A stretch of DNA of 64,000 nt from Clostridia bacterium. GTDB lineage: Bacteria > Bacillota > Clostridia > Christensenellales > CAG-138. Where the stretch lies: NCBI GenBank assembly GCA_017407205.1, contig JAFQXA010000034.1, forward strand, positions 35,584-99,583. The letters run 5' to 3'. The position numbers and the translations under genes are program-made. The notes under the pieces are model-generated. The model saw nothing but the letters and a program-made list of their open reading frames with translations, was not told the DNA's origin and searched no databases. Below, piece by piece: positions 1-39,889 of the stretch (within the stretch, counting starts at the first letter, position 1; the number at the start of each line of letters is the position of its first letter).

Positions 1-1094
1 AAAAGATTATGGAATGGTGAAAAGCGGTTTGAGAGCATTTCACCGGCGGTGATTCCTGCGGATATAATCTTAAAGTTTGAAAGTGAAGACATCAGTGGCA
101 TTGTTTTATTTTTCAATATGATCCTTCCGTCACGAAGCGAGAATGCTTCAAGATCGGGCTTTGTCTCAAATGCATCATCCATAAACTTTAAAAAATCTTT
201 TTCCTTGCACCTTAGAAGCTCCATATTCTGTTGTTTTTTTATTCTACCGCCCGACACGCGAATAAGCCTTGCAACAAAATGCCCCTCGCCTTTTGAATTA
301 TGCGGATAGAGTCTATGCATGAACTCAAGTTCAAACTCTGTAAAGCTATCCAAAAACCACGCAATTACCTGCTCATTCTCTTCTTCTGAAAACGTACAGG
401 TCGAGTATATGAGAGCACCGCCCAAGCTTACTGCTTCCTGTGCACTTGTCAGAATTTCACGCTGTCTGTTTGCACATGATATTACATGCTCCTTGGACCA
501 CTCCTGTACCGCTTTTTCATCGCGACGGAACATTCCCTCACCGGAGCAAGGTGCATCAATAAGCACCACATCAAAATATCCAGATAGTGCCCTGCACAGC
601 TTATCGGGGTGCGCTGATAAAACAACTGAGTTTGTAATACCAAGTCTTTCAAGATTCCCTGCAAGAATTTTTGCCCTGCTCGGAACAATTTCATTTGATA
701 CCAAAAGCCCCTCACCGCAAAGTCGTACTGCTACTCCTCCGCTTTTTCCGCCGGGTGCTGCACAAAGATCAAGAACTTTCATTCCGGGTACTATTCTTGC
801 AGCCTCAATCGGGCTCATGGCAGATGGCTCCTGCATATAATAAAGCCCCGCCAAGTGATACGGATCGTCTTTTACCTTTACATCACTTTTTAAAATAAAG
901 CCTTCTTCTAAAATTCCCGACTCTTCAAGAGAAAAATCCGACAGTTTTAAAAAATCCTCAACCGATATTTTTAAAGTATTAACACGCAAACCTCTTTTTG
1001 AAGGCTCATCATAGGAACGCAAAAAAGCGGTGAATTCATCACCTAACTGTTTCTTCATTCTTTCTATGAAGTTTTGAGGAAGTTTGCAAGTCAT
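1..1094 (-). CDS. rRNA m5C methyltransferase, NOL1/NOP2/Sun family (RsmF/RsmB-like); C-terminus runs off the window start
   Basis: Absent from the ORF track because it is open at the window edge. My reverse-strand translation from ATG (comp. 1092-1094) reads MTCKLPQNFIERMKKQLGDEFTAFL... It contains DLCAAPGGKS (SAM pocket), IDAPCSGEG and YSTCT (catalytic Cys motifs). The + strand ORFs 319-840 and 671-898 are its shadows. Confidence 0.85.
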   Translation of the reverse strand, partial: MTCKLPQNFIERMKKQLGDEFTAFLRSYDEPSKRGLRVNTLKISVEDFLKLSDFSLEESGILEEGFILKSDVKVKDDPYHLAGLYYMQEPSAMSPIEAARIVPGMKVLDLCAAPGGKSGGVAVRLCGEGLLVSNEIVPSRAKILAGNLERLGITNSVVLSAHPDKLCRALSGYFDVVLIDAPCSGEGMFRRDEKAVQEWSKEHVISCANRQREILTSAQEAVSLGGALIYSTCTFSEEENEQVIAWFLDSFTEFELEFMHRLYPHNSKGEGHFVARLIRVSGGRIKKQQNMELLRCKEKDFLKFMDDAFETKPDLEAFSLRDGRIILKNKTMPLMSSLSNFKIISAGITAGEMLSNRFSPFHNL

Positions 1095-11630: not shown

Positions 11631-11876
11631 TCAGTCAACTTCGAGTATATTTACCGAATATCTTCTGTCTTCCTGTGCTGAAGCTGCCTTGACAACGGTG
11701 CGTATAGCCTTTGCAATACGGCCCTGCTTGCCTATAACCTTGCCCATGTCTTCAGGAGCAACAGTAAGCTCGATAACAGTAGTATTTTCCTCAACCTTTT
11801 CTTCAACCTTAACTTCGTCGGGCTTATCAACAAGGTTCATAGAAATATACTTAACAAGTTCTGCGATATTTCCCAT
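11631..11876 (-). CDS. KH-domain RNA-binding protein (YlqC/UPF0109)
   Basis: 81 aa with GKVIGKQGRIAKAIRTV (GxxG KH motif). Confidence 0.8.
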   Translation of the reverse strand: MGNIAELVKYISMNLVDKPDEVKVEEKVEENTTVIELTVAPEDMGKVIGKQGRIAKAIRTVVKAASAQEDRRYSVNILEVD

Positions 11877-13984: not shown

Positions 13985-14020
13985 CAAAAAACAGCACCCT
14001 GCCTATTTATGCAAGGTGCT
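13985..14020 (-). terminator. intrinsic terminator of the zinc-ribbon gene
   Basis: Reverse strand: AGCACCTTGC-ataaatag-GCAGGGTGCT, followed by GTTTTTTGTT. Confidence 0.7.
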
Positions 14021-14072
14021 ATGTTTGTAATGTTTATCGAACGCTAAAAATGTAGGACAAGCAAAAGCTGTA

Positions 14073-14348
14073 TTATCTGCTTCTCTGTGCCTTGAAGCAC
14101 TCGCTGCAATAAACAGGCTTATCGTTCTTGGGTACGAACGGAAGCTTTGTGGGTGCGCCACACTGTGAGCAAATTGCATCGTACATTTCTCTTTCACCAT
14201 TACGCTGGCTCTTGCGAGCATTTCTGCAGCTCTTGCAACGAGTGGGCTCATTCTGGAAACCCTTCTCAGCGTAAAATTCCTGCTCACCTGCTGTGAAAAC
14301 GAATTCTGCACCGCAATCCTTGCATACCAAAGTTTTGTCCTCGAACAT
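14073..14348 (-). CDS. zinc-ribbon domain protein (two CxxC...CxxC knuckle pairs)
   Basis: 91 aa. CKDCGAEF...CKSCRN and CSQCGAP...CSECF. AAGGGGA RBS. Confidence 0.7.
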   Translation of the reverse strand: MFEDKTLVCKDCGAEFVFTAGEQEFYAEKGFQNEPTRCKSCRNARKSQRNGEREMYDAICSQCGAPTKLPFVPKNDKPVYCSECFKAQRSR

Positions 14349-14389
14349 TGTAAAATCCCCTTAAAAAATTATTTTAGCTATTCAAATAC

Positions 14390-14601
14390 GCAGCTGACCT
14401 GGTCTTTGACCCCACACTCGCCAACAGGACGGTTTGCTACTAGGCATTTTCGCTTCCCACTCCCCGTCTCTCGACACAAGGCCGGTTGGACTTACTTCTA
14501 AGCCGCACCATGATCACCGAAATTTTTTCAGCTTACGTGGATCGTTTAGCCTGCGACTGGCATCGACTTTCAACCACAGACCTGCACATTAGAATAACCT
14601 G
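14390..14601 (-). ncRNA. candidate structured RNA (stand-alone ncRNA or long 5' leader of the zinc-ribbon gene); class unknown
   Basis: The 347-nt intergenic gap has no credible ORF and is visibly GC-richer than its flanks. It has its own promoter (14608-14636). Long-range pairing: 14579-14583 with 14402-14406, 14571-14574 with 14407-14410, 14558-14562 with 14421-14425 (includes a G-U valid only on the minus strand), and 14551-14554 with 14426-14429. The 3' end is undefined. Confidence 0.4.
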
Positions 14602-14607
14602 TTATAA

Positions 14608-14636
14608 TTATATAACAAAACCGGCCAGAACGCAAG
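14608..14636 (-). promoter_or_regulatory. sigma-A-type promoter for the candidate RNA
   Basis: The reverse strand reads TTGCGT (comp. 14631-14636), a 17-nt spacer, then TATAAT (comp. 14608-14613). Confidence 0.55.
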
Positions 14637-14695
14637 AATTATTTTTCCAAATTTTACCTTTTTAACTTATTTTTTGATATTCTTCGAGATTTTTA

Positions 14696-15262
14696 TCAAC
14701 GCATATATGAAGCATCATATATGGCTCTCGGTCCGCCCACATACTTGGGGCGTGTACGAGCCATAGTAATATTTGCTTCCCCTATTTTTCTTGTCTTTGC
14801 GTGAATCGGAACTACAACGGCATGCATATGCATACCGATGAATGTACCGCCGATGTCAATGCCAAGCGATGCTTTCATCTTAATATCTTCTACCATCACG
14901 GGTTCTTTAAAGCACTTTTTAGCCTGCATAGCCATCGCGCCGCCTGCATGAAGTTGAGGCACAACCCAAACCTCGCTTAAGTCATACTTTTCCATGCACG
15001 CACGTTCTACAACAAGTGAACGGTTTAAATGCTCACAGCACTGCACCGCAAGATATAATCCGTACTTTTTTACAAAGGGCAGCAATACCGACATTACAGC
15101 ACTTGCCGCTTCCTCGGACGAGCCTGTACCGATGCACTTCCCCATTATCTCGCTGCTTGAACAGCCGATGACCAAAATATCACCCGGCTTTATATTGTGC
15201 TTTGAAGCCTCTTCAAGCTCCAAAAGCGCCTCTGTCATTTGTTGTTTTATTTTGTTTGTCAT
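14696..15262 (-). CDS. TIGR01440/UPF0340 (YwlG-like) family protein
   Basis: The track starts at 15370. I prefer ATG at comp. 15260-15262 (MTNKIKQQMTEA...) behind GGAGGA. GDILVIGCSSSEI...QCCEHLNR pattern. Confidence 0.75.
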   Translation of the reverse strand: MTNKIKQQMTEALLELEEASKHNIKPGDILVIGCSSSEIMGKCIGTGSSEEAASAVMSVLLPFVKKYGLYLAVQCCEHLNRSLVVERACMEKYDLSEVWVVPQLHAGGAMAMQAKKCFKEPVMVEDIKMKASLGIDIGGTFIGMHMHAVVVPIHAKTRKIGEANITMARTRPKYVGGPRAIYDASYMR

Positions 15263-15330
15263 AAAACATCCTCCAAAGCAATCTTCATGTATTTTATCAA
15301 TATAATTTACGTAATACAACCTTTTTACGC

Positions 15331-15366
15331 ATAAAAAGACTCTCGGCCAAAAAGCCGAGAGTCTTT
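15331..15366 (-). terminator. intrinsic terminator of the 1166-aa surface protein gene
   Basis: Reverse strand: AAAGACTCTCGGC-tttttg-GCCGAGAGTCTTT, followed by TTAT. Confidence 0.75.
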
Positions 15367-15374
15367 GCACCTAT

Positions 15375-18300
15375 TCATATTCCGATTACTTTTTTCTGCA
15401 ATGCCGCAATATCTCTCGAATTAAGTTCCTTGTCGGTTCTCATATCACCGGCAATGGTTGTAATTTCATCTGCTTGTGCTGTTCCCAGAATTATCTTCTG
15501 TATAGCGGCTATATCTCTTGAATTTATTTTGCCATCACCCGTCAAGTCGCCAACAATCGCAACATCGAGCGTATCAACAACTTCTCCGTCTATAACAAGC
15601 CTTATTTGTGCACCTGTGCCTACAAGCGCATCACCCTCTGTAATCTTGTTGCCCAGATTATCATAGATTTCTATATTTTCGGGCTTATCAAATGCAGTTA
15701 TTATCTGTATCAGAGAAGTTTTTTCTTCAACACCCTTTAACTTTCCGTTTTCTGCCACATAAGTGCTTTCCGCTTTAAGTGTAAGTCCACTCGGAACAGG
15801 CAGCGTAGGTTCAGGTGTGGATGTAGCCTCCGCTGTGGGTGTAGGCGTTGGGGGTACGATGTCCGACTTATAGTCAGTTATTACCTCTGCACCCAATGTT
15901 CTGCGAATTGCGTAGTTACTTATTGCACGGAGCATTATTACTGTTATGCGGTCAAAGCATAAGCTTCCGTCCAAGCCGTTGACTTTCATCGCAGTCGGTG
16001 CTTGATTTGCGTGTGCCTTGACATATTTGGCATACGCTTTTCCGAGATAAAGATAATCGTCTTTGTCTATCACTTCATCTTCAAATGTGTCTTCACGCAC
16101 AGGGTTGATGGGATTGGTTACTTCGTACACCGTTATGGTTTCAGGCAAATCCTTGTAATCCGAATCCCAGGAAAGTTCTTTGAGCACTTCCGCCGCCATC
16201 TCTGCATAAGTTGCCTGCCTGAAGATATATTTTACTTCTTCACCGTTTTTGTTTGTAAACTCAACAGTCTTGCTTGATGGAATCTGTGCATACATATCCT
16301 TTTGATATGCTTCATAAAGTGATGCGCAGGCAGTTATTGCAAGCTTCATCGGAATTTCATACGATGTTCTTGCTGTTTCATAGTCTGCGGAAATGCTTTC
16401 GGGCAATATGCCTGTTTTTCTGAAGCTTCGCATGATTCTTGCAAGCACCAGAAGTTGGTGTGTGAAATTCATGCTTCCGCTGTACGGGAAACCTTCTGTT
16501 TCTTCAAACTCTACTGTCATAAGCGGTTGACGTCTTGAATACTTGTCAAGCTGTTCAAGCTGTTGTTCAACAAAATGAACATATCCTTCCTTGCCTATCA
16601 GGTTTTCAGCTTCGTTTACAACAAAGCTGTCAGAAGCCGTCCAAGTAAGCTCTGTGCAATCCTGTAATATTACCCTGTGAACAGCACCTGTATTTGAAAG
16701 CTCCGAAACTGCCTTTGCACAAACATCAAAAAACTGTGACATATTGAGCAATTCGTCTTTCAGGATTACGCTTTGGGGCAGAATGAAGTTTTCATCATAG
16801 TAGTCAATAAGACTCTTTGATGCAGAAATTATATCCTCGACCTCAGCATAAGTCTTTCTCTCCATTGCTATATCAATATTTTCGGGAAGCTCGCCATATT
16901 TTGCAAGGTATGAGAATATTCTCATAACAGTTATCAGTGTACGGTTGTAGTCCATCCTTCCGTTTATTCCGTAGCTGTGGTTTACCGCAATAAAGGGCGC
17001 GGGAACACACAGATACTCGTTTTCTTGTGTGAGTGTATTCATCTGTGCAAGCTGCCTTTTTACGACGTTTGAGTATGCCAACTTACTCATTGTGTCAGAA
17101 GACATTCTTGCTTCCTCCACGCCTTGAGGCTCTGTGCAAGTATAGTATGGAACATCATTTTCGTTTGCATCAAGAAGATTTGTGAGTGCTTCACAGGCAA
17201 CTCTGAAATATGATGCTTTATTTGCTGTAATTTCACCAAATGTAAGACTTTCGGGAACTGTACCTGTTTCTTCGTATTCTTTTCCTGCCTCCATCAAAAC
17301 AGCCGTTGCTTCGTCAAGCGTGAATACAGCTTCCGGCTCAGGTGTAACAATAGGTTCGACTATTTCTTCGTCCAAATAGCGCTTTGCCATTCTGAACTCA
17401 AACTTATTGCCATATGAGTCATAAAGGGAACTTTTATTACTTACAAAGTATATAGGCATTTCAGTTGAGGGCCAGATTTCCGAAATATCCTGTTTTGCCT
17501 TGAAAGTGATTTCCATGAGCCTGTCTATTTTATTGATGGGAACAGCAGCATCCGACCAAATGAATCGGAATTCCTTTGTGTCCTCATTATATACACTTTC
17601 CTTTACAGTGTCTGCACTTCTGTCATCAGGTAACTTAAAAGAAACAAGCTCTATAAATTCCGTGTTGATTCTTATCGAGAAATCCATCGCGCCTATTCTT
17701 CTCGCCTTAAAGCCGACGGGGGCACTTATAGTTACTTTAAATTCTTCGCCTGCTGATATGGAATGCTTATCCGCTGTAAGATTAAACGCATTTTCTGCAG
17801 CTGTGTAGTTATATGTAACGGTTTTGTTCTTCATGCCCTTTACCGCACGCTGGAATGCCAAAAGATCCAAAGCATTGATTTTTTTGTTTCGGTCAACATC
17901 AATTACATCCTTTGTTATTCCAATATGCTTTGTGCCGTTTAAAATCGCATCCGTTATAATGTCGGAGTCCGTTTCATTTCCGTAGCCATCCGCATTAACA
18001 TCACCGTTGACAAGCATTACGATTGAATCCAAAATCGTTTCTTCATTTTCTCGGCAAACACACCAACCTGTACGAACTATGCTTTGATTGTCAGTTATTC
18101 TGTTGCCTTTTTCGTCTGCAACATACAAATCACGGTTCACAAAGTTTTTCAAAAACGCTTCAATCGTTGTGCCGCCGGGTACATTTTTCAGATAGTCAGT
18201 TGAATAATCAAGAACATAGAAGCTTTCTTCACGAAGCTCTATCGCCACTCTTTCATTTCTCTTGTATGCAGTTGTTATGTATTCCGGCAGAACACCGTTA

Positions 18301-18875
18301 TTATAGTAGTAAGCGAGTGCCCACGAAAGTATACCGGCAACACGCGGTGCTGAAATATTACCTGAATATTCCGTTATTTTATCATTCGGATACGCAAGAT
18401 AATCAAACGCGCCACTTCCTGTTTCTGCATAATATGCCAAAACTTCATCTGCCATATCAAGGTACATTTCCTTTGATACCATGGGCGCTTTAAACGTATC
18501 ATCAGAATACTCACGGAAAGGCACAAACTCGTATGTAATCCTCATGTCAGTATTACCCTCGGACAGAGCTTTTAGTATTCTCGCTGCCAGCAAAGTATAT
18601 GACGGTGTATTGAAAACATACAGAGTTGAGCTGTCGCCTCTCATTGTAGCCCTGTCTGCAACTTCAGTATGGGTATAAAACCTGTTTCGAACAGCATTGA
18701 AACGCTGCAATGCAACCCCCATTGAAATATCGTCTTCAATAATAACGATATCGGGATTCCATTCATCATCAGGATCAGGATTTTGAGCAAAGCTCGGCAT
18801 AACCGCCATCAAAACGAAAGCTATCGCCAGAACGAAGGCTGTCAACTTTTTTATTGTTCTATTTAATGAATACAT
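15375..18875 (-). CDS. secreted scaffoldin-like protein: PMBR-like repeat modules, internal dockerin, cohesin-like domain, C-terminal dockerin
   Basis: Preferred start is ATG at comp. 18873-18875 (MYSLNRTIKKLTAFVLAIAFVLMAVMPSFAQ is a signal peptide) behind AGGAGAG. Dockerin Ca-loops: DVNADG...DVDRNKKINALDLLAFQRAV (~17835-18010) and GDLTGDGKINSRDIAAIQ...GDMRTDKELNSRDIAALQ (15375-15560). Cohesin-like beta-sandwich pattern at ~17400-17815. Repeated modules end in LPE[YNS]I. Confidence 0.75.
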   Translation of the reverse strand: MYSLNRTIKKLTAFVLAIAFVLMAVMPSFAQNPDPDDEWNPDIVIIEDDISMGVALQRFNAVRNRFYTHTEVADRATMRGDSSTLYVFNTPSYTLLAARILKALSEGNTDMRITYEFVPFREYSDDTFKAPMVSKEMYLDMADEVLAYYAETGSGAFDYLAYPNDKITEYSGNISAPRVAGILSWALAYYYNNGVLPEYITTAYKRNERVAIELREESFYVLDYSTDYLKNVPGGTTIEAFLKNFVNRDLYVADEKGNRITDNQSIVRTGWCVCRENEETILDSIVMLVNGDVNADGYGNETDSDIITDAILNGTKHIGITKDVIDVDRNKKINALDLLAFQRAVKGMKNKTVTYNYTAAENAFNLTADKHSISAGEEFKVTISAPVGFKARRIGAMDFSIRINTEFIELVSFKLPDDRSADTVKESVYNEDTKEFRFIWSDAAVPINKIDRLMEITFKAKQDISEIWPSTEMPIYFVSNKSSLYDSYGNKFEFRMAKRYLDEEIVEPIVTPEPEAVFTLDEATAVLMEAGKEYEETGTVPESLTFGEITANKASYFRVACEALTNLLDANENDVPYYTCTEPQGVEEARMSSDTMSKLAYSNVVKRQLAQMNTLTQENEYLCVPAPFIAVNHSYGINGRMDYNRTLITVMRIFSYLAKYGELPENIDIAMERKTYAEVEDIISASKSLIDYYDENFILPQSVILKDELLNMSQFFDVCAKAVSELSNTGAVHRVILQDCTELTWTASDSFVVNEAENLIGKEGYVHFVEQQLEQLDKYSRRQPLMTVEFEETEGFPYSGSMNFTHQLLVLARIMRSFRKTGILPESISADYETARTSYEIPMKLAITACASLYEAYQKDMYAQIPSSKTVEFTNKNGEEVKYIFRQATYAEMAAEVLKELSWDSDYKDLPETITVYEVTNPINPVREDTFEDEVIDKDDYLYLGKAYAKYVKAHANQAPTAMKVNGLDGSLCFDRITVIMLRAISNYAIRRTLGAEVITDYKSDIVPPTPTPTAEATSTPEPTLPVPSGLTLKAESTYVAENGKLKGVEEKTSLIQIITAFDKPENIEIYDNLGNKITEGDALVGTGAQIRLVIDGEVVDTLDVAIVGDLTGDGKINSRDIAAIQKIILGTAQADEITTIAGDMRTDKELNSRDIAALQKKVIGI

Positions 18876-18914
18876 TTTTAACTCTCCTGTTTGCAATTCT
18901 TAAACTCCAAGTTT

Positions 18915-30933: not shown

Positions 30934-32001
30934 TTATCTTTTAACAACATTATGATATTGATAAAATCGACGTGCTCTCGGATTTGCCAAAATCGGTTCG
31001 AACGGCTGAACACCTGCCATGTCTGTATTTGCATTACCTTCAAGCAATATAAACTCTCCGTTTTCTTGAACGACAACATCCCAGGCAATATATTTTATGT
31101 ATTTCACTTTATTGTGCACGGATAAAATTTTTGCCTTGATTTCATCAAAATGAGAAACCCTCTCTCCCTCAATCGGCATATTGGTATCGGGATGATGAGT
31201 AATCCATGTGAGTTTTCTGTCACGTACAAGATATACAGGGGACATTACACCTGTATCCACATCTATTCGTGCAAGGCATGAGCCTTTGCCAACGTTATCC
31301 ACAGGAACGGATCTTTCAGAACCAAAGCGATGGAAACAAGCGGCAAGAAACGCGTCCTGCGTGTCCGGATCTATCATAGTAATAAATTTTACAGTGTTTG
31401 CAGTCCGCGGGAAAATTTTCTTTGAATATTCGGCCTGTTCCACCGTTTCGCTGATCATGTAATTATTCAGCTTGCTCAGCTTTTTATTTAAATCGGCTTC
31501 GGAAATTTCCTTTTCATTGAGATAGTAGCTGCCATTATATTTGCCTACTTTGAAAATACCTTCACCGCTGCCTGCATCAAACTTTTTAATCATGTATGAA
31601 GAATTATCTTTCAAATGCCTATCTAAAAAATCAATAGGATTTTGAGGTGTACGCTCTCCCCCTGCCTCCAGCGGAACTACCTTGCCACGCATGAAATATC
31701 CCGGAGTCTCTGCCATTTTCACAAATGCTCGCATATAATCCGTGAATACTAATTTATTGTTAAGCAGCTCGGTATATCCGGCATTGATTTTTATGGCTTT
31801 TGTATACATTTCCCAATCCGTAAGGAAATCCTTGCGGTCATACTTTTTGAAATCGTAAAAAACAGCCTGATCCGGCATAAAGCCATGGAAAAGCACAGAC
31901 ATTTTTTGCCTGAATGTTACATCAAACTTGCCGCTTCCGGGCTGAAGCCATTTCTTAAGATATCGAACAAGTCCAGCAAAAAACAACAGTTTTTTCTTCA
32001 T
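30934..32001 (-). CDS. ATP-grasp ligase, sugar-transfer-associated type (ATPgrasp_ST-like)
   Basis: 355 aa. N-terminal LFHGFMPDQAVFYDFKKY...LNNKLVFTDYM and C-terminal FILLEGNANTD (E-x-N Mg site). Family assignment is from memory of the family pattern. Confidence 0.6.
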   Translation of the reverse strand: MKKKLLFFAGLVRYLKKWLQPGSGKFDVTFRQKMSVLFHGFMPDQAVFYDFKKYDRKDFLTDWEMYTKAIKINAGYTELLNNKLVFTDYMRAFVKMAETPGYFMRGKVVPLEAGGERTPQNPIDFLDRHLKDNSSYMIKKFDAGSGEGIFKVGKYNGSYYLNEKEISEADLNKKLSKLNNYMISETVEQAEYSKKIFPRTANTVKFITMIDPDTQDAFLAACFHRFGSERSVPVDNVGKGSCLARIDVDTGVMSPVYLVRDRKLTWITHHPDTNMPIEGERVSHFDEIKAKILSVHNKVKYIKYIAWDVVVQENGEFILLEGNANTDMAGVQPFEPILANPRARRFYQYHNVVKR

Positions 32002-32038
32002 AAGCTACACTCCTTATCTTTTTATACATTCTCCCAAA

Positions 32039-33133
32039 TCATTTATATGTTTTCTTGCGGTTAACACCCACGGAACGGAAAATCAATCGTTTAAACTTTC
32101 TTACGCCATATACAGTCAACATACACAATTTGCTCGCCACCGCGTATATCGGTTTCGGCAGGGCATACAATTTTGACAACAGTTCAAAGCGTATTTTTGC
32201 ACCATGTAATTCCTTTCCCGTAAGCTCATATGTCACGGGAGTATATTTTTTCTGTTGTGCAAATGCAACTTCAACGACACTTCGTGTATCTGTGTCAAAG
32301 ACAACAATCATGGTACGTCTGTTGATTTTCTGCCATGTTTTGTGAGTCAAGCACGATACTTTCATCAGCATATCTGTTTCGGCATACTTATCTCCAACAT
32401 GTGGATAACAAAGTTCTTGATGTTCATTCAAAAAGAAATTAGGGAACATAAGATTTCCCAGCGAAATATATGCTTCTTTACCGTTGTGACAAACTTTTCC
32501 CAGCGGAATATGAGGATGATGGCCGATTATCAAAACACATTTTGGATGCTCGAGTATTTTTTTTGCCCAACTTATAATTTCTTCGGGGGGAAGCGCAACA
32601 TATTCTGCCGCCCAATGAATAGAGACAATCGCATCATTATCACCCAAATTATCCAAATCTGAAATTACTTTTTCCAGCGAAAACCCATTTACACCCGGCT
32701 TATTATCTTCTGCACAAGAGACATTCCTTAAATAATGTGTGCCGTACTGACAATATGCTAACATTACTAAATTATCAGTAATTTCAATACAGCGCCCGGC
32801 TTCTTGCTGATTACTGCCTGCACCAACAAAAGGTATTCCCCACTCATTTAAGCAACTGAGCGTATCCAAGATGCCGTCATCACCGCAATCATGAATATGA
32901 TTGTTAGCCAATGTTACATAATCTGCATTCAATGACTGTATACGTTCTCTGCAATCGGGTGTTGCATATATGGTAGTTTTACCGCTTATCGGCAACTTTT
33001 TGCTTATGCATTGTTCGAGATTAATAATTCGCTTATCAGCATTGGAATATTGCGAAATCCTTATATGCTCTAATGATTCGCTCGACAGTGCATCTCCGAC
33101 AATAGCACAATCACCACCAAAAGCTATCTTCAT
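32039..33133 (-). CDS. CapA/PGA_cap family metallophosphatase-like protein
   Basis: 364 aa. VTLANNHIHDCG, SIHWAAEY, IIGHHPH motifs. No signal peptide or TM seen. ATGA overlap with the upstream gene. Confidence 0.75.
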   Translation of the reverse strand: MKIAFGGDCAIVGDALSSESLEHIRISQYSNADKRIINLEQCISKKLPISGKTTIYATPDCRERIQSLNADYVTLANNHIHDCGDDGILDTLSCLNEWGIPFVGAGSNQQEAGRCIEITDNLVMLAYCQYGTHYLRNVSCAEDNKPGVNGFSLEKVISDLDNLGDNDAIVSIHWAAEYVALPPEEIISWAKKILEHPKCVLIIGHHPHIPLGKVCHNGKEAYISLGNLMFPNFFLNEHQELCYPHVGDKYAETDMLMKVSCLTHKTWQKINRRTMIVVFDTDTRSVVEVAFAQQKKYTPVTYELTGKELHGAKIRFELLSKLYALPKPIYAVASKLCMLTVYGVRKFKRLIFRSVGVNRKKTYK

Positions 33134-34368
33134 TCTGCCTCTTCCTCCATAGCTACTATCTTTGCTTTTTTCTTATAAAACAGAACACCGCAGACAACAG
33201 CACAGACAACGCAAAATACATTTGAAATTATGTTAGCATACGAATATCCTAAAAGACCCTGAGTTTTTGTCAGATACAATGTACTTGAAATATAGACAAC
33301 AAAACACAAGCCACGAATAATTATCTGATGAGTAATTGTTGTTTCTGCCAACAAAAACATAAGCAAAAGACCGCTTGCAAAACCGATAACCGAACCTATA
33401 TTTATCGGAAGATTTAAAAGATGAACGCTTTCAGCTAAATTAGGATACAGAATATTTACCACGATAGGTGTTGCAACACAGCAAAGTGCAACCAAAACCG
33501 CACCAACGGGAATGCTCCATAAAAGCATCTTTTTAAACGCTGATAAATTTATGGTAGATGTCTTTCTGTCAGCCAGGTAGCTGAGAAGCAATGTGGACAA
33601 CGGGTGCAATACCATGTTCATAATCTTACCTACCATGGACACCGCATAATATTCCGATACTGCAACAGAGCCCAAAATCGGCTGGATCAATACACGGTCA
33701 AGATAGGCAGTTGAAGAAAGCAAGTAAGAAACAATCAAAATCGTTGTAGGTAACCATAATTTTTTGAGCTCCGTAGTTGGTCTTTGCAAGTGCAAAACAG
33801 AGCCTTTCATCACAACAAACAAAACAGCAGCTATTTCACCGGTTGCAAAAATAACTAACCAATTTTTCACGAGCAGGAACAATCCAAGTCCGGCAATGTA
33901 TCCTGCACTTAAAATTAAGAAGTATATCAAATATCCTTTAAACCAAAGGCTTAAACGGAATTCTACCTGAGCGTAATATCTCAATAAGCATATCACCATG
34001 AATATGCCGATTTCCAACGCAAACAGAAGGTCATTTGTCTTTAAATAAGCGTCACCTGCTCCTATCGCAAAAACGACCAACGAATAAGCGCCAAGCAAAG
34101 TCAGGAAATCACCATTGTTTATGGTTTCATTATGCTTATATAAAATTCTCTGATGTCCGAGCACCGTTCCGAACATTTGCGGAAATACATAAGAAATACC
34201 CAAATAATACAGCACATCACCCAAGTATGCTGCACCATGCGTAGCATTAATATAAGGTTGAATGAAAATCTGCTGTACGATATTAAGTATGATTACAGCC
34301 GAAATCGTATACAAAAAATCTTTTGAGAATTTACCTAAAAGGGATTTCTTGATATTAATGACAAACAC
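33130..34368 (-). CDS. polytopic membrane protein, Wzx/MOP-flippase-like
   Basis: 412 aa and hydrophobic throughout (about 12 predicted helices by eye). The start is a GTG abutting its own AAGAAGG, so the true start is uncertain. Confidence 0.55.
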   Translation of the reverse strand: MFVINIKKSLLGKFSKDFLYTISAVIILNIVQQIFIQPYINATHGAAYLGDVLYYLGISYVFPQMFGTVLGHQRILYKHNETINNGDFLTLLGAYSLVVFAIGAGDAYLKTNDLLFALEIGIFMVICLLRYYAQVEFRLSLWFKGYLIYFLILSAGYIAGLGLFLLVKNWLVIFATGEIAAVLFVVMKGSVLHLQRPTTELKKLWLPTTILIVSYLLSSTAYLDRVLIQPILGSVAVSEYYAVSMVGKIMNMVLHPLSTLLLSYLADRKTSTINLSAFKKMLLWSIPVGAVLVALCCVATPIVVNILYPNLAESVHLLNLPINIGSVIGFASGLLLMFLLAETTITHQIIIRGLCFVVYISSTLYLTKTQGLLGYSYANIISNVFCVVCAVVCGVLFYKKKAKIVAMEEEAE

Positions 34369-34393
34369 CTTCTTTTATCTTTTGTAAATATGC

Positions 34394-35662
34394 TTAAAAC
34401 ATCATTTTTTCAATTTCATCAAAAGCCGCCTCATTGCCGGGATACTTTTCACGCAAAATTTCAAGTTCGTAATAACCCGGCTTTGTGTCTTGCGGTACAG
34501 CATACGAGAATACTGTATTCCCCTGATGCTCCCTTATAAAGCCCAAGGCTTTTTCCATGGCTTTTTCACTACTTTCCGACTCGTTCATGCACTTGTTTAT
34601 CAACGCAGTCAAATTTACTCTGTAAAGTGCATCACCCTTGGGGCTTATTGTTCCACTATATGGCTCTAATTCGCCCATAGCATCACGATAAAGCATCGTC
34701 AAATAGTTAAATCCTGCAGCTGCCTGAAAATAGTTTGAAAGCCAAGGTCTCAAATTAGCTTCAATTACAACCCATTTGTTATGCTTCTTGCTATACATTG
34801 TTTCAACACCTAAAAAGCCATGCCAATTTAAAGCTTTTATTGTGCATATTGCAAGAGAAGCAATGTCTTCTTCAAAATATGTCTTGCTGACAACACCCGT
34901 ACCGTACTTGGGTGGATATTCCATTATTTTATGCTGCGCACTAATCATGCGAATATTGCCTTGACCGTCCGCATATAAATAGCACGATACTTCCTGTTCA
35001 AGACGATCAAATTCTATCTTTTCTTGAACTACCACTTCAAAACCTGACTCAATCTCCTCGTTTAGAAGCTTTCTCATCTGTGTTCCATCTTGACATTCAA
35101 CTGCTTTTCTTCCATCATGCATCCTTGCGAATGCATTATCGATAGTCTTTAATGACGGTTTGTAAACGCAAGGATAAACCATATTTTCCACAGCAAAATC
35201 AATATCTTCTTTACTATTAACTGCATATGTCAACGGGATTGAAACATCATGCTCCTGCATCGTTTTATAAAATGTATCTTTCCTAAGCTCTTTCCAGCAA
35301 GTCTTATTAAAATCACTGGCACCGGGTTGCAAAAAATATTCTTCCAATACATCATAATGGTTATTTACGAAAACCAACGCTGTATCGCTCGTGGAAATAA
35401 GCAACAACTTTCTTCCGTATTGTTTAAAGAGCTTCTTTCCGAGTTCCTCCATCTGCTTTGCTGCCATTTCTTCATCGGCAGCAGGATTTGCAATACAAAC
35501 AGGCTCGTTGAAAAACCTTGATTTTTCGCTAATCCAAGCGGAAGCCCCTTCCCATGTGAAAACAACAGGAATAACAGGAATATCCTCTTTCGCAAAGCAA
35601 CGCATAACATCTAAAAAGCAGTTATCACTTGCACGCAATACAACCACAGGTATTTTGCTCAT
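34394..35662 (-). CDS. ATP-grasp carboxylate-amine ligase
   Basis: 422 aa. Pre-ATP-grasp N domain, YPCVYKPS, VVQEKIEF, WVVIEANLRPW (E-x-N). Confidence 0.7.
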   Translation of the reverse strand: MSKIPVVVLRASDNCFLDVMRCFAKEDIPVIPVVFTWEGASAWISEKSRFFNEPVCIANPAADEEMAAKQMEELGKKLFKQYGRKLLLISTSDTALVFVNNHYDVLEEYFLQPGASDFNKTCWKELRKDTFYKTMQEHDVSIPLTYAVNSKEDIDFAVENMVYPCVYKPSLKTIDNAFARMHDGRKAVECQDGTQMRKLLNEEIESGFEVVVQEKIEFDRLEQEVSCYLYADGQGNIRMISAQHKIMEYPPKYGTGVVSKTYFEEDIASLAICTIKALNWHGFLGVETMYSKKHNKWVVIEANLRPWLSNYFQAAAGFNYLTMLYRDAMGELEPYSGTISPKGDALYRVNLTALINKCMNESESSEKAMEKALGFIREHQGNTVFSYAVPQDTKPGYYELEILREKYPGNEAAFDEIEKMMF

Positions 35663-35704
35663 ACTACACCCCCGAAACAGCTAAGATACAATCTTGCATA
35701 TTAT

Positions 35705-37564
35705 TTATCTTAAATTAAATTGCCCATTATGGCTTAACAATCTTTCTTCCTCACTCTGCGCAAATGCTGTTTCCCAGTTATTATAACTGTCAATTGCACC
35801 AAACTTGCCTGCATGAGTAATAATATCACCGTTACGATACTTCTCACTCATAATTCCCGGTGCTGTCATAATGCGTTTATTCATAGCTGACTTAAGAGCA
35901 CAAGGATCTGACAAGCAAGGTATTATATCGCTCGAAATTTGTATTTTTTGTTCTGTAAAGTATTTTGATTCTCTTGCTATATGCTCCAAAATACAAGAAG
36001 CTTCTTTTATCAAATGATTTTTCCGTTCCTCCACGAAAGGATGCTGTGCAGCTCTGCGTATATCTTCATGGTTTTCACGGAACAATCTGACTGCGCGTCT
36101 CAAGAGTTTTGAGCTTTCAATAACATCATCAGCAGTAGCAGCATGATCTGCTTCACAATAGCTAACCAAATGTATAATGCTCGGCGATAACAACATTTGA
36201 AGCAAAGTAGTTCTTGCCAACTGATATTTTGCATAATCCTGGTCTACCGAAAAATGCTCAATTCCTGCACGGGTTTCCAAATAAATATTGTGCTGTGTTG
36301 CTGTAGGCTTAAGTTTTCGGATAATCTCCCGTGCTGCATAAAATTTAGCCAAATCTGCATAATCACCCATTTCAACAGGCTTATTAAACTGGCATTGGAA
36401 GATCATATGTTGTGATAAAGCTGCATACATTACGCTTGCAATCAATCCATAATCTGCTACAAAAACAGCATCATGTGCCAAACGGGATGACCATTGATTC
36501 GGATCATTCATCTCTGTGGGAATACCCTGCTTTACAAGATATTTTACAGCCCCAATATGCTCATCAATGGCTTTATCAACACTCATCGGACCACGGCCGT
36601 CAAGCTCGCTGAACCAAAACAAAGGAACAGCTTGATGTGCACCACGCAACATACCAACCTCAAGGCATGTATCAATAAAAGGAATAATATCCTTTACATG
36701 ACAATACGGCTTCACTGACGGGAAATTACCTATCCGCGAAGCTGAAAACAGCTCTTCTAAATCGGATTTTGTCTTGTACGGAACTCCACCATCGTTTTTC
36801 ACACCATAAAACGCATTAGCATCACCGAAAAATCGCTGTGATAAATCCGACGAGCCCAACGAAATTTCATCCACAGCACCTGCTGACGCAATGCGTATAA
36901 TCCCTTCAACCGTAGGTGCTATTGAATCATCCGGGATGCCAAAATGTGTGCGAATCATCGGAATATCGGATTCTGCCATGCGAGTCGGAAAATGTAAAAG
37001 CGCTTTATCCGATGGTCTTTTTAAAGGCTGCTCATCTAAATACAAATCGCCTCTTACTACTTCTTTTGCTATTTCATCAAGCAGTTCAATTCTTTCAGGG
37101 CTCGCTTCCTCACGGAACACATCCAATATTTTCTGTGCTTCTGAATGATTTTCACCGCCAAAAAACTTGATTGTTCCAATCGTTGTTTCATAAATATCTT
37201 TTGACTGCATCTGTAAATTCAGATTGTATTTAGCATCAAATCCTAACTGATGAACTGCAGCAAGCGTTTCAGGTAATGCCGCAAAGCAAATAGAGCTCTT
37301 TTCAAAAATGAAAGATGCTCCTTGTTCCAAGGCTTGCAAAAACTTCGTTAATTCGCCAATCGCCTGCTCTGCGCTTAAACGATAGCTTAAGCCCAAGAAG
37401 GTCGGACATACCTGCTTTATTATTTCTATTTTCTTTTCCAAAGCGGTATCCGGAGGAACTACTTGTGTCTGAACTCCAAGCATTTTTGCAATTCGTGCAG
37501 CTCTATAAATACCGACAGTATGTGGGTCACCACCCAATGTCATCCCCAAAAAAATACGTTCCAT
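35705..37564 (-). CDS. B12-binding-domain protein fused to a large glutamate-mutase-E-like(?) domain
   Basis: The track starts at 37591. I prefer ATG at 37564 (MERIFLGMTLGGDPHTVG) behind GGAGGA. GDPHTVG fits the DxHxxG cobalamin motif and LGLSYRLS fits SxL. The C-terminal ~480 aa shows only faint similarity by eye to GlmE/MutE (NFPSVK vs GFPGVN). Confidence 0.5.
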   Translation of the reverse strand: MERIFLGMTLGGDPHTVGIYRAARIAKMLGVQTQVVPPDTALEKKIEIIKQVCPTFLGLSYRLSAEQAIGELTKFLQALEQGASFIFEKSSICFAALPETLAAVHQLGFDAKYNLNLQMQSKDIYETTIGTIKFFGGENHSEAQKILDVFREEASPERIELLDEIAKEVVRGDLYLDEQPLKRPSDKALLHFPTRMAESDIPMIRTHFGIPDDSIAPTVEGIIRIASAGAVDEISLGSSDLSQRFFGDANAFYGVKNDGGVPYKTKSDLEELFSASRIGNFPSVKPYCHVKDIIPFIDTCLEVGMLRGAHQAVPLFWFSELDGRGPMSVDKAIDEHIGAVKYLVKQGIPTEMNDPNQWSSRLAHDAVFVADYGLIASVMYAALSQHMIFQCQFNKPVEMGDYADLAKFYAAREIIRKLKPTATQHNIYLETRAGIEHFSVDQDYAKYQLARTTLLQMLLSPSIIHLVSYCEADHAATADDVIESSKLLRRAVRLFRENHEDIRRAAQHPFVEERKNHLIKEASCILEHIARESKYFTEQKIQISSDIIPCLSDPCALKSAMNKRIMTAPGIMSEKYRNGDIITHAGKFGAIDSYNNWETAFAQSEEERLLSHNGQFNLR

Positions 37565-37598
37565 TCTCAATCCTCCGTTAAATATCGCCATATAAGCG

Positions 37599-38876
37599 TC
37601 AGTCCTTTGATGTGAAGTATGTTCCTTTTAGATATTCAACGATAAACTCGTCAGAAAACTCCTCCAAATCTCTCCAAAAATATTTAGGACTATCTGGAAA
37701 TTTCCTGTGATATTGTTCCATTACATATTCCATTGGTGCTATATCAATTTCCAATCTTTTTGCAATCATCATAATAGGCAAAAAACTTGATGGAATATCC
37801 TCTTCAACATAACGCCACTGCGGAACAGACATTTTCTGGTAAGTAGGTGTGCGTTTTATAGTATCCCCCAAAGATTCCCCAATAACTCTTTCTACACCGT
37901 AAGTATAATCAAGCCAATGCTGTGCAGAGACAATCGCACCCGAAAGCAGACTCAATGTTTCACTGCGCGCTTTGCGAAGTTTATTAATATCATCGGTAGA
38001 GTTTTCAATCTTTCGCAATTCGCCCAATAGGAATGCCCATTCTTGCTCTCTCTCTTTTCCGCGCAAGCCGTATGTTTCCATACCTAATTTATCTGCAATT
38101 TTCAGTCGGATCTGATCAATTTCTTCGAGCAATGACGATACCTCTTTTGAATCTCCTATTGCTTGCATATAATACGAATACAGCACCCCTTCTTCTTGTG
38201 CTTTTTTGATATCTTCGTACTTAAGCACATAAGGCGTAGGATGAAACACCGCACCTATATTTCCGATAGAAGTAACAGCAGGAACATAACTTATAATCGC
38301 CTGCGGAAAAACTTTTGACAAAAGCTCTATTGAACTTTTCTTGAAGCAGCCTTCAAGTGATGTCACCCAGCAACGCTTTCTTCTCTTGATATAAGCAGTT
38401 CCGGCAGCAGGGGCCTTACATGAATAGGGATTTGTAGCAAAGCAAATAAAAGGATGCCTTGTACCAAGTATATTCCATAGATACGGAACAGCAAATGTTC
38501 GAGGTGGTGATAAAATTACAGGCACATCAGCTTCCGCAAGCCCCTCTTTTTTTAAGGCCAAAATTGTTTCCTGCAAGTAATGGGACGGCTCTGCTATAAT
38601 AATCAAGTCGCTTTCCCAAACGAGCTTTTTAAGGTCATGTCCCAATTGTTCTTCACAAACAGGAATTAAGCGAGAAGTTTCTTTATTCTTGTTGGCAGGC
38701 CTTTCAAGGTACAATCCGCCCTGTTCCCTTACTGCTTTCAAAAAAGACTCAGCATGAGCACTATTACGAACATAGCCGTAGACTGAATATCCTTCATTAA
38801 GAAAATCCGCAAGATAAGCACGCCCTGTTTGAGAGCTTGCACAATAAATGCCTATGCGAATTTCCTTGTTTGGCAT
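37599..38876 (-). CDS. opine (octopine/nopaline) dehydrogenase family protein
   Basis: The track starts at 38936. I prefer ATG at 38876, 1 nt after the GT2 stop (TAATATG). N-terminal Rossmann-like IGIYCASSQTG. C-terminal RYVEEDIPSSFLPIMMIAKRLEIDIAPM matches the RYxxEDxPxGLvP signature. Confidence 0.65.
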   Translation of the reverse strand: MPNKEIRIGIYCASSQTGRAYLADFLNEGYSVYGYVRNSAHAESFLKAVREQGGLYLERPANKNKETSRLIPVCEEQLGHDLKKLVWESDLIIIAEPSHYLQETILALKKEGLAEADVPVILSPPRTFAVPYLWNILGTRHPFICFATNPYSCKAPAAGTAYIKRRKRCWVTSLEGCFKKSSIELLSKVFPQAIISYVPAVTSIGNIGAVFHPTPYVLKYEDIKKAQEEGVLYSYYMQAIGDSKEVSSLLEEIDQIRLKIADKLGMETYGLRGKEREQEWAFLLGELRKIENSTDDINKLRKARSETLSLLSGAIVSAQHWLDYTYGVERVIGESLGDTIKRTPTYQKMSVPQWRYVEEDIPSSFLPIMMIAKRLEIDIAPMEYVMEQYHRKFPDSPKYFWRDLEEFSDEFIVEYLKGTYFTSKD

Positions 38877-38877
38877 A

Positions 38878-39810
38878 TTAGTCGATCTCCTTATCACGAA
38901 TAGTATACAACGGTCCTTTCTTTGCTTCTGAAACAATCTGAGCCAAGTAATGACCTATAATACCCTGTCCAAGTAATATCAATCCACTGGACGCCAACAT
39001 GATGATGACCTGTGTCGCAAAACCTGCAACGCTGTAACCCGTTACAAGATATCGGATAAGGTAATAGAGAATCAATATCGCACTAACAAATACATCAAAC
39101 ACACCAACATAGCCAAGAACCAACAACGGTAAATTTGAGTTGTATAAAATATTATTGAAAAAGTCCTTCACCAAGCGCTTAAAGCCGTAACCGCTTTTAC
39201 CAAACTGGCGTGCGTTATGCTCAACAGTAACATTTCCTATACGGTTTGTAGTACGCAAAAGCATATGCCCGATTCTAGGGCGTGACTCCGTAAATTTACA
39301 AAGCGCATCAGCTACATAACGCTTCATTGCCCTAAAGCTCGTTAAATGAAGAGTTTTTGGTTTTTTGAAAATATAACTCGTAAACGCATTCGTCATATTA
39401 GTCCCCAAATTTCGAATGGCACTGTGCTTCTTTGATTCATACTGACCACACACTACATCCATTTGAGGAGTTTGCTCCAAATACGCAATCAGCTTTTCAA
39501 CTTCATGAGGAGGATGTTGCAAATCATCATCCATTGTTATAACAATATCACCCGAAACATGTCCCATGCCGCACAACAACGCTGTATGCTGTCCGAAGTT
39601 GCGTGCCATATAAATTGCCTTTACGCGTTTGTCTTTTTCATGCAACTCATGCATAATTTGGGCAGAACGGTCTTTCGATGAGTCATCAACCAAAACAAGT
39701 TCAAAATCACCGTCATACTTTTCGTCAAACAAAGACGCAAGTCTTGCATGCAACTCCTCCAAAGTATTTTCAGAATTGTACACAGGAACGACAACAGAAT
39801 ATTTAGCCAT
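38878..39810 (-). CDS. polyprenyl-phosphate glycosyltransferase, GT2 (GtrB/ArnC/CsbB-like)
   Basis: Preferred start is ATG 39810 (MAKYSVVVPVYN) behind AGGAGA. Has VDDSSKD, MDDDLQH and two C-terminal TM helices. Confidence 0.85.
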   Translation of the reverse strand: MAKYSVVVPVYNSENTLEELHARLASLFDEKYDGDFELVLVDDSSKDRSAQIMHELHEKDKRVKAIYMARNFGQHTALLCGMGHVSGDIVITMDDDLQHPPHEVEKLIAYLEQTPQMDVVCGQYESKKHSAIRNLGTNMTNAFTSYIFKKPKTLHLTSFRAMKRYVADALCKFTESRPRIGHMLLRTTNRIGNVTVEHNARQFGKSGYGFKRLVKDFFNNILYNSNLPLLVLGYVGVFDVFVSAILILYYLIRYLVTGYSVAGFATQVIIMLASSGLILLGQGIIGHYLAQIVSEAKKGPLYTIRDKEID

Positions 39811-39889
39811 TTCCCGTCTCCTTTTCATTTGTATTTTCGCTGTTTTTATTTCTGAATCTTCCTATGTATAAATAGAAATACTCAAAGTA

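Follow-up and report, generated by a model that had tools for sequence, protein, structure and literature searches.

A raiA-motif (ModT) RNA gene closely followed by a double zinc-ribbon gene in a Clostridia bacterium

More than 2,500 species of Bacillota and Actinomycetota carry RNAs of the raiA motif, whose genes typically lie between comFC and raiA/hpf (PMC10861870); comFC stands upstream in 74% and raiA/hpf downstream in 66% of cases. The RNA, called raiA in Clostridium acetobutylicum and ModT in Clostridioides difficile, is among the most abundant and stable RNAs of both organisms (PMC10861870, PMC11706538). Mutants that lack it are impaired in sporulation, in aggregation and in the transition to stationary phase, and the deletions were complemented in trans in two species (PMC10861870, PMC11706538), and the effect of ModT in C. 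difficile runs via cyclic di-GMP (c-di-GMP; PMC11706538). Here we report that a stretch of 64,000 nucleotides (nt) from a Clostridia bacterium (assembly GCA_017407205.1, contig JAFQXA010000034.1, positions 35,584 to 99,583; the window, to whose numbering all positions refer) contains on its minus strand, at 14590 to 14385, a full-length member of this RNA family, followed after 36 nt by a small gene encoding a double zinc-ribbon protein (zf_Tbcl).

Structures of raiA RNAs from Nocardioides, C. acetobutylicum and Mogibacterium, obtained by cryo-electron microscopy (cryo-EM), define a conserved core and the stem P1 (PMC12968392). The protein pair KhpA-KhpB binds several raiA RNAs in vitro with a dissociation constant of about 2 uM, and an exposed linker is the proposed binding site (PMC12968392). 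No ligand was found in vitro (PMC5737381), and the raiA genes of C. difficile and C. acetobutylicum have terminators of their own (PMC11706538, PMC10861870). raiA/ModT is among the most widespread bacterial RNAs without known biochemical function; published analyses of its neighbourhood judged synteny uninformative and named no protein partner (PMC10861870, PMC11706538).

Two other kinds of system invite comparison. One is that of ornate orphan RNAs such as OLE RNA, whose protein partners (OapA, OapB and OapC) are encoded next to it: like it, raiA is a large, structured and highly conserved Bacillota RNA with obscure biochemistry, and at this locus a small conserved protein gene is tightly linked to raiA on the same strand. 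raiA has no sequence or structural relation to OLE RNA, and its zinc-ribbon linkage, a genetic one, concerns only part of the family, about one quarter of the sampled loci. Riboswitches and other cis-acting 5' leaders resemble the raiA copy of the window in their position within a 5' untranslated region, shortly upstream of a same-strand coding sequence. raiA differs from them in having no expression platform and no known ligand, in acting in trans, and in occurring in many other contexts and orientations.

The RNA was identified by a search of the whole window against Rfam 15 with cmscan at the gathering thresholds. The raiA RNA model (RF03072) matched 14590..14385 on the minus strand with 185 bits (gathering score 101.3; E 3.5e-47), from model position 1 to 209 of 209 and without truncation. 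It was the sole match above its gathering score in the 64 kb; no 6S family or other Rfam family reached its own. In the window sequence, 52 of the 57 base pairs of the Rfam structure line are canonical. Read on the minus strand, the element occupies the gap between a DUF436 gene (14696-15370) and the zinc-ribbon gene (14073-14348), and it differs from its surroundings in composition: G makes up 33% of the minus strand within 14385-14590 and 15-17% of the intergenic DNA on either side, and the G + C fraction is 0.47-0.55 inside the element as against 0.24 in the adjacent spacer.

An original prediction, made from the letters alone, had placed here a G-rich, structured noncoding RNA gene of about 210 nt on the minus strand, and in these respects it is borne out (about 206 nt). 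The gap, which it had described as free of open reading frames (ORFs), indeed holds no minus-strand ORF of at least 40 amino acids (aa), but the plus strand has two mechanical ORFs, 52 and 59 aa long. Its assignment to an unknown class does not stand: the cmscan search that it had proposed as a check returned a well-known family, the outcome it had itself named as refuting novelty. As a full-length representative of RF03072, a curated family that has been studied experimentally, the element is ordinary and already known, and not a new class.

Compared with the raiA/ModT family, whose characterized members are C. acetobutylicum raiA and C. difficile ModT, the window copy is alike in its P1a, P1b and P1c helices with GU and GGU bulges, in a GAA(A) junction without P2, in P3a/b, P4 and the two pseudoknots PK1 and PK2, in the linker UUAGA(A/C)GUAA and in P5 to P8, as well as in its single sigma-A-type promoter and its Clostridia host. 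It differs in its neighbours, DUF436 upstream and zf_Tbcl 36 nt downstream in place of comFC and hpf, in having no terminator of its own, and in a P8 internal loop slightly off the usual E-loop. Like C. acetobutylicum raiA, the copy belongs to the subtype that lacks P2 and has a short P7 and a P8. The closest loci come from uncultured Clostridia (Christensenellales, Oscillospiraceae and Acutalibacteraceae), so that the host fits the known range of raiA RNAs in Bacillota and Actinomycetota.

The probability that 14590-14385 on the minus strand is the gene for a raiA-motif/ModT RNA, with a sigma-A-type promoter, the pseudoknotted fold and the trans-acting function of its family, and with a probably co-transcribed zf_Tbcl gene, is in our estimate roughly 0.9. 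The structural elements of the RNA are as follows.

14385..14590, minus strand: raiA-motif (ModT) RNA, 206 nt (RF03072; 52 of 57 Rfam pairs; 29 covarying pairs)
14572..14590, minus strand: P1, 5' strand (P1a 14590-14582, GU bulge 14581-14580, P1b 14579-14577, P1c 14576-14573)
14571-14568, minus strand: GAA(A) turn after the P1 5' strand, replacing P2, in the published register (PMC12968392)
14541..14567, minus strand: P3a/P3b hairpin (P3a 14567-14564/14544-14541, P3b 14561-14559/14551-14549)
14557-14552, minus strand: apical loop of P3b, forming the 5' arm of PK1, pairs with 14502..14507
14502..14507, minus strand: 3' arm of PK1, UGCGGC, partner of 14557-14552
14492..14501, minus strand: conserved single-stranded linker UUAGAAGUAA, proposed docking site of KhpA-KhpB; family form UUAGA(C/A)GUAA (PMC12968392)
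14421..14489, minus strand: P6-P7-P8 domain (P6 14489-14485/14425-14421, P7 14484-14481/14475-14472, P8 base 14468-14465/14431-14428, and the distal part of P8)
14407..14415, minus strand: P4 3' strand GUGG and start of an 8-nt linker (GUGG at 14415-14412 pairs with CCAC at 14540-14537)
C14408 and A14407 with G14509 and U14510, minus strand: PK2
14385..14403, minus strand: P1, 3' strand (P1c 14403-14400, GGU bulge 14399-14397, P1b 14396-14394, P1a 14393-14385)
14376..14383, minus strand: arm of a possible P1 extension, GAAUAGCU, 8 base pairs (bp) with GGUUAUUC at 14599-14592 in the minimum free energy (MFE) fold

The fold was evaluated on an alignment of 46 raiA RNAs from loci with a linked zinc-ribbon gene, to which the structure was transferred from the updated consensus and the cryo-EM descriptions (PMC10861870, PMC12968392). 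The covariation analysis used this cryo-EM-based model and not the Rfam structure line, from which it differs in the P3/P4/PK region. Across the 46 homologues 95.1% of the cells were paired, as against 30-44% when the 3' partners were slid by 1-3 columns, and 29 of the 55 pairs showed compensatory changes on both sides; on no measure did any of 500 shuffles reach the observed value. The proposed check for covariation in relatives thus came out in support of the raiA architecture.

When 14590 is counted as position 1, the landmarks fall into the published register: the G10-U11 bulge, G14, U19/A23 and the turn G20-A21-A22 (PMC12968392), which is the GAA(A) turn and thus leaves no P2. In our numbering, P3a is 24-27/47-50, P3b 30-32/40-42, PK1 34-39/84-89, P4 51-54/176-179 and PK2 81-82/183-184, and the linker U90-A99 reads UUAGAAGUAA. 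All P1 pairs are canonical in the window; the 9-bp P1a contains 8 covarying pairs, and P1b (CUG/CAG) and P1c are paired in 100% of the sequences. The same holds for P3a (two covarying pairs) and P3b, which in the family come with an asymmetric, A-rich internal loop, for the six base pairs of PK1, three of which show compensatory change, and for P4, which is invariant in the clade. P6 is 100% paired, and P7 and the base of P8 are each 98.9% paired, with 3-4 covarying pairs in each of these three helices. PK2 is paired in 93.5% of the sequences and shows one compensatory change from G-C to A-U, and the linker columns are nearly invariant.

The helices of the original prediction fared differently. 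None of its four nested helices pairs at the positions given, and all pair perfectly once both arms are shifted by -1, so its coordinates were miscounted by one throughout. After this shift, the four helices and its CTTA-GAAG-TAAG hairpin were paired in 83.6% of cells across the 46 homologues as against 83.7% in shuffles (309 of 500 as high), with a covariation score of 0.055 as against 0.056, and the pairs break where the columns vary: A33-U168 is unpaired in 37 of the 46 sequences and A39-U165 in 41. The hairpin, in which a U-A pair fails in 22 of the 46, coincides with the conserved linker UUAGAAGUAA (14501-14492), which the solved raiA structures show as single-stranded (PMC12968392). With the shift required and zero covariation support compared with the raiA architecture, these helices and the CUUA/UAAG hairpin were rejected as the fold.

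P1 may be extendable by 8 bp, through the flanking arms listed above, which would bring it to the point where the transcript is predicted to begin; pairing between the flanks is only weakly enriched in the relatives (-6.2 kcal/mol as against -4.4 kcal/mol for shuffles). Four of the zinc-ribbon-linked raiA RNAs are 283-335 nt long (L006, 5429-5715; L007, 5669-5962; L030, 5627-5961; L040, 4879-5161), and the position of their extra sequence, between model positions of about 110 and 119-147, suggests an expanded P7/P8 domain. The structure line of RF03072 pairs 14561-63 with 14414-16 and 14540-41 with 14508-09 and draws PK1 as a nested helix, where the cryo-EM model has P3a/P3b, P4 and PK2; the Rfam annotation seems to lag behind the solved structures.

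Several observations weigh against the assignment or some part of it. The usual raiA synteny is missing: the window ORFs examined (1500-48450) include neither comFC nor hpf, and the actual neighbours are DUF436 upstream and zf_Tbcl downstream, followed by ylxM-ffh. Synteny is a typical, non-defining trait of the family and the only one of its criteria from which the locus clearly departs. In its P8 internal loop, the window copy reads AGUAGCAAA, lacks one base on the 5' side, and has AGCAAA in place of AGCGAA, the commonest form of the E-loop; a P8 carrying an E-loop marks the subtype to which 68% of raiA RNAs belong. P1b, P3b and P4 never vary in the clade, which is consistent with the model and places them beyond a covariation test. 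The MFE of the single sequence is no better than that of shuffles (z = +0.55), so that thermodynamics alone lends no support, an outcome to be expected of a pseudoknotted RNA. The protein partner of the family is unsettled, as ModT was missing from a KhpB pull-down in earlier work on C. difficile (PMC11706538). Finally, the start site, 3' end, abundance and co-transcription of the RNA are predictions for an organism known only from a metagenome scaffold.

The signals around the RNA and the gene that follows it are as follows.

14630..14635, minus strand: -35 hexamer TTGCGT (TTGxxx at 16-18 nt from the -10 hexamer in 53 of 53 loci)
14607..14612, minus strand: -10 hexamer TATAAT (perfect in 51 of 53 loci)
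14349..14384, minus strand: A/U-rich spacer, 36 nt, with a Shine-Dalgarno (SD) sequence AAGGGGA at 14362-14356, no terminator and no credible promoter
14073..14348, minus strand: double zinc-ribbon gene, 91 aa (zf_Tbcl and zf_Tbcl_2, CxxC-x17-CxxC; Pfam E 2e-27 and 4e-19; TIGR04272)
13991..14022, minus strand: terminator-like hairpin of 12 pairs with a T-run, from a terminator scan, closing the unit of RNA and zinc-ribbon gene

The promoter TTGCGT-17-TATAAT had been recognized in the original prediction, at a range (14608-14636) that is one base off. A box of the form TTGxxx-16..18-TATAAT stands at the homologous position in all 53 homologous loci, and the promoter is therefore real; TATAAT ends 8-16 nt before position 1 of raiA in these loci, and an A-rich tract lies upstream. 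A generic promoter scan did not return the window's promoter, since its -35 hexamer matches the consensus TTGACA at only 3 of 6 positions. From this sigma-A-type promoter, transcription would start at about 14600. The RNA folds with the closing stem P1a-P1b-P1c, its GU and GGU bulges and the GAA(A) turn in place of P2, around a core of P3a/P3b, P4, PK1 and PK2, with the linker UUAGAAGUAA exposed and P5 and P6-P7-P8 as peripheral stems. By homology, it may act as an abundant, stable, trans-acting modulator of the transition to stationary phase, affecting sporulation, aggregation and the level of c-di-GMP.

Downstream, nothing terminator-like was found in 14349-14384, in agreement with the earlier reading that no terminator precedes the coding sequence at 14348 and that a co-transcript is plausible. 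In 52 species genomes the homologous spacers measure 28-62 nt (median 38) and contain only a strong SD sequence. As neither a terminator nor a promoter fits into the 36-nt spacer, the zf_Tbcl gene is most likely co-transcribed with the raiA RNA. It would form a 3' extension of the raiA transcript that ends at 14022-13991, and the stable RNA would be trimmed out of this co-transcript or persist from it. A separate start for the ylxM-ffh cluster is marked by a promoter of perfect consensus, TTGACA-16-TATAAT, at 13962-13935 on the minus strand, after the terminator of the zinc-ribbon gene and before ylxM, and the unit therefore ends before the cluster of signal recognition particle (SRP) and ribosomal genes.

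The alternative that survives best has the RNA and the zinc-ribbon gene as independent transcripts: the RNA would end just after P1, through processing or a termination that escaped recognition, a weak promoter of zf itself would overlap the 3' end of the RNA, and the adjacency would be tight packing. The separate terminators of raiA in C. difficile and C. acetobutylicum (PMC11706538, PMC10861870) speak for it, as do T-runs 10-20 nt after P1 in many spacers, a TAAAAT in the window spacer (14376-14371), and 28 of 80 zf homologues without raiA within 6 kb, which shows that zf can be expressed alone. The spacers, however, leave no room for both a terminator hairpin and a promoter, and the terminator search gave 7 weak candidates in the 52 spacers, as against 47 of the 52 loci with a clear hairpin and T-run no more than 150 nt beyond the zf stop codon. 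A -35 box would fall into the 3' part of the RNA, which is invariant and contains nothing that resembles TTGACA, and -10-like hexamers are not conserved among the spacers. We regard separate transcription as unlikely.

The linkage of the two genes was examined from both sides. Relatives of the zinc-ribbon protein were collected from one genome per GTDB species; at least 593 were confirmed and the best 80 loci kept, all from metagenome-assembled genomes of uncultured Clostridia/Bacillota, the top relative being 85% identical. Relatives of Christensenella and Christensenellaceae are among these loci (L008, L011). A nhmmer search with the window RNA found raiA in 52 of these 80 loci, including all of L001-L034, always directly upstream of zf and on the same strand. 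In the other 28 an Rfam scan found no raiA within about 6 kb. Some flanks of zf loci without raiA contain a T-box leader and an azaaromatic (yjdF) riboswitch (L063, 2068-2290; L074, 12002-12109), both unrelated. For the RNA side, metagenome contigs were scanned with the conserved 3' pattern of raiA, which yielded 120 loci, all confirmed with the nhmmer profile and 109 of them near full length. Among the 108 metagenome raiA loci with at least 350 nt of downstream sequence, 25 (about 23%) have a zf gene on the same strand 30-46 nt downstream.

A Pfam census of the first same-strand ORF downstream (109 ORFs) counted RaiA/HPF 41 times, zf_Tbcl 24 times, 4HBT 6 times and SecA 4 times. Where the ORF has the length of an HPF protein (175-185 aa), it starts at a distance of 140-600 nt from the RNA, which agrees with the published hpf context. 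Against the clade profile, the zf-linked RNAs score a median of 175 bits compared with 120 for the others and thus form a coherent subgroup. The outer flanks of the 52 loci are not conserved, and since they vary while RNA and zf stay linked, the two travel as a block. In a large group of uncultured gut and rumen Clostridia, raiA is accordingly the 5' part of a self-contained two-gene unit made up of a strong, conserved promoter, the RNA, 28-62 nt with an SD sequence, a zf_Tbcl gene of about 90 aa and a terminator.

DUF436 was rejected as a conserved upstream partner, since it occupies that position in only some 15 of the closest loci. The window also contains a KhpA-family KH-domain gene (11631-11876, minus strand), part of ylxM-ffh-rpsP-khpA-rimM-trmD-rplS, 2.5 kb downstream of raiA and on the same strand. 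Its proximity looks coincidental, and a functional link to khpA was rejected: ylxM, ffh, rpsP and khpA occur within 6 kb downstream in none of the 52 related raiA-zf loci. Three loci with the raiA-zf unit (L018, L031 and L032) and one with zf and no raiA (L067) come from bins labelled Phocaeicola dorei, Alloprevotella, Bacteroidaceae or Candidatus Moraniibacteriota; at least L018, L031 and L032 are probably Clostridia contigs placed in the wrong bin, as raiA occurs only in Bacillota and Actinomycetota.

The same linkage could be taken to mean that the raiA fold is a cis-acting leader, a riboswitch-like sensor or a 5' stabilizer, that controls the zf_Tbcl gene; a riboswitch-like leader had also been considered in the original prediction, and Rfam files RF03072 under 'Cis-reg; riboswitch'. 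The orientation is constant, the distance short and fixed (28-62 nt in the 52 species genomes, with the 25 of 108 metagenome loci besides), no terminator separates RNA and gene, and the two move together while the outer flanks change. There is, however, no expression platform: in the MFE fold the SD sequence is unpaired in the A/U-rich spacer, and neither a terminator nor an antiterminator is present, so the element is not a riboswitch in the usual sense. Elsewhere the RNA lies 140-600 nt from hpf or beside unrelated genes, deletions in two species were complemented in trans (PMC10861870, PMC11706538), and the in vitro work cited above found no ligand (PMC5737381). Cis control of zf_Tbcl thus appears slightly less probable even than separate transcription. 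A 6S-like RNA or another structured RNA of unknown class, as first proposed for a GC-rich intergenic element with its own promoter, has next to no probability, given a full-length raiA match where 6S and all other families stay below their gathering scores, and a supported fold that is multi-branched and pseudoknotted, with covariation in the raiA-specific pseudoknots.

With the RNA identified as raiA/ModT, the residual new point is its context, the compact raiA-zf_Tbcl unit, and not the RNA class. In the papers and the full-text library searched, we found no publication that describes this arrangement or pairs 'raiA motif' with 'zinc', although the synteny data in the supplement of Soares et al. 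2024 may already tabulate it. The unit, present in 24-25 of about 108 metagenome raiA loci and in 52 of the 80 closest zf loci, offers a lead on the working partner of raiA. As a speculation that we hold to be doubtful, the zinc-ribbon protein could be a dedicated functional partner of the RNA, be it a ribonucleoprotein subunit, a chaperone, or an effector in a stationary-phase or ribosome-related pathway together with hpf. If so, it would be the first genetically linked protein for this orphan RNA.

The zf_Tbcl ORF is a real gene: differences at the three codon positions (0.16/0.13/0.49) point to purifying selection. Its product has 7,724 homologues at E <= 1e-5, and the top 120 all share the same two-domain architecture, with no informative fusions. 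A sequence search of the PDB gave no match, and a confident AlphaFold2 model (pLDDT 88) found no structure in the PDB with E below 0.1 by Foldseek. No literature was found on the Pfam family PF13451; small archaeal proteins with CxxC-x17-CxxC bind zinc (PMC12704099). In an alignment, zinc-ribbon proteins encoded downstream of raiA hardly differ in sequence from those without it, and there is no obvious separating signature.

The ffh region of the window is identical to a 122.5-kb metagenome scaffold (ENA ERZ28654015). The upstream neighbour of the RNA (14696-15370, minus strand), earlier called YwlG-like, encodes a DUF436/TIGR01440 protein. Its mechanical ORF, which begins at a GTG and encodes 224 aa, is probably too long: in the public gene call on the identical scaffold the protein has 188 aa, and residue 55 is where the Pfam match begins. 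A surface-polymer-like cluster occupies 30934-39828 on the minus strand (PGA_cap, sugar-transfer ATP-grasp, GT2 and an octopine-dehydrogenase-like protein) and includes three large ORFs without a Pfam match at E <= 1e-6 (33130-34368, 34394-35662 and 35705-37591). At 15375-18896, also on the minus strand, a protein of 1173 aa with matches to cohesin, type I dockerin and pseudomurein-binding repeats resembles a cellulosome-like surface or scaffold protein.

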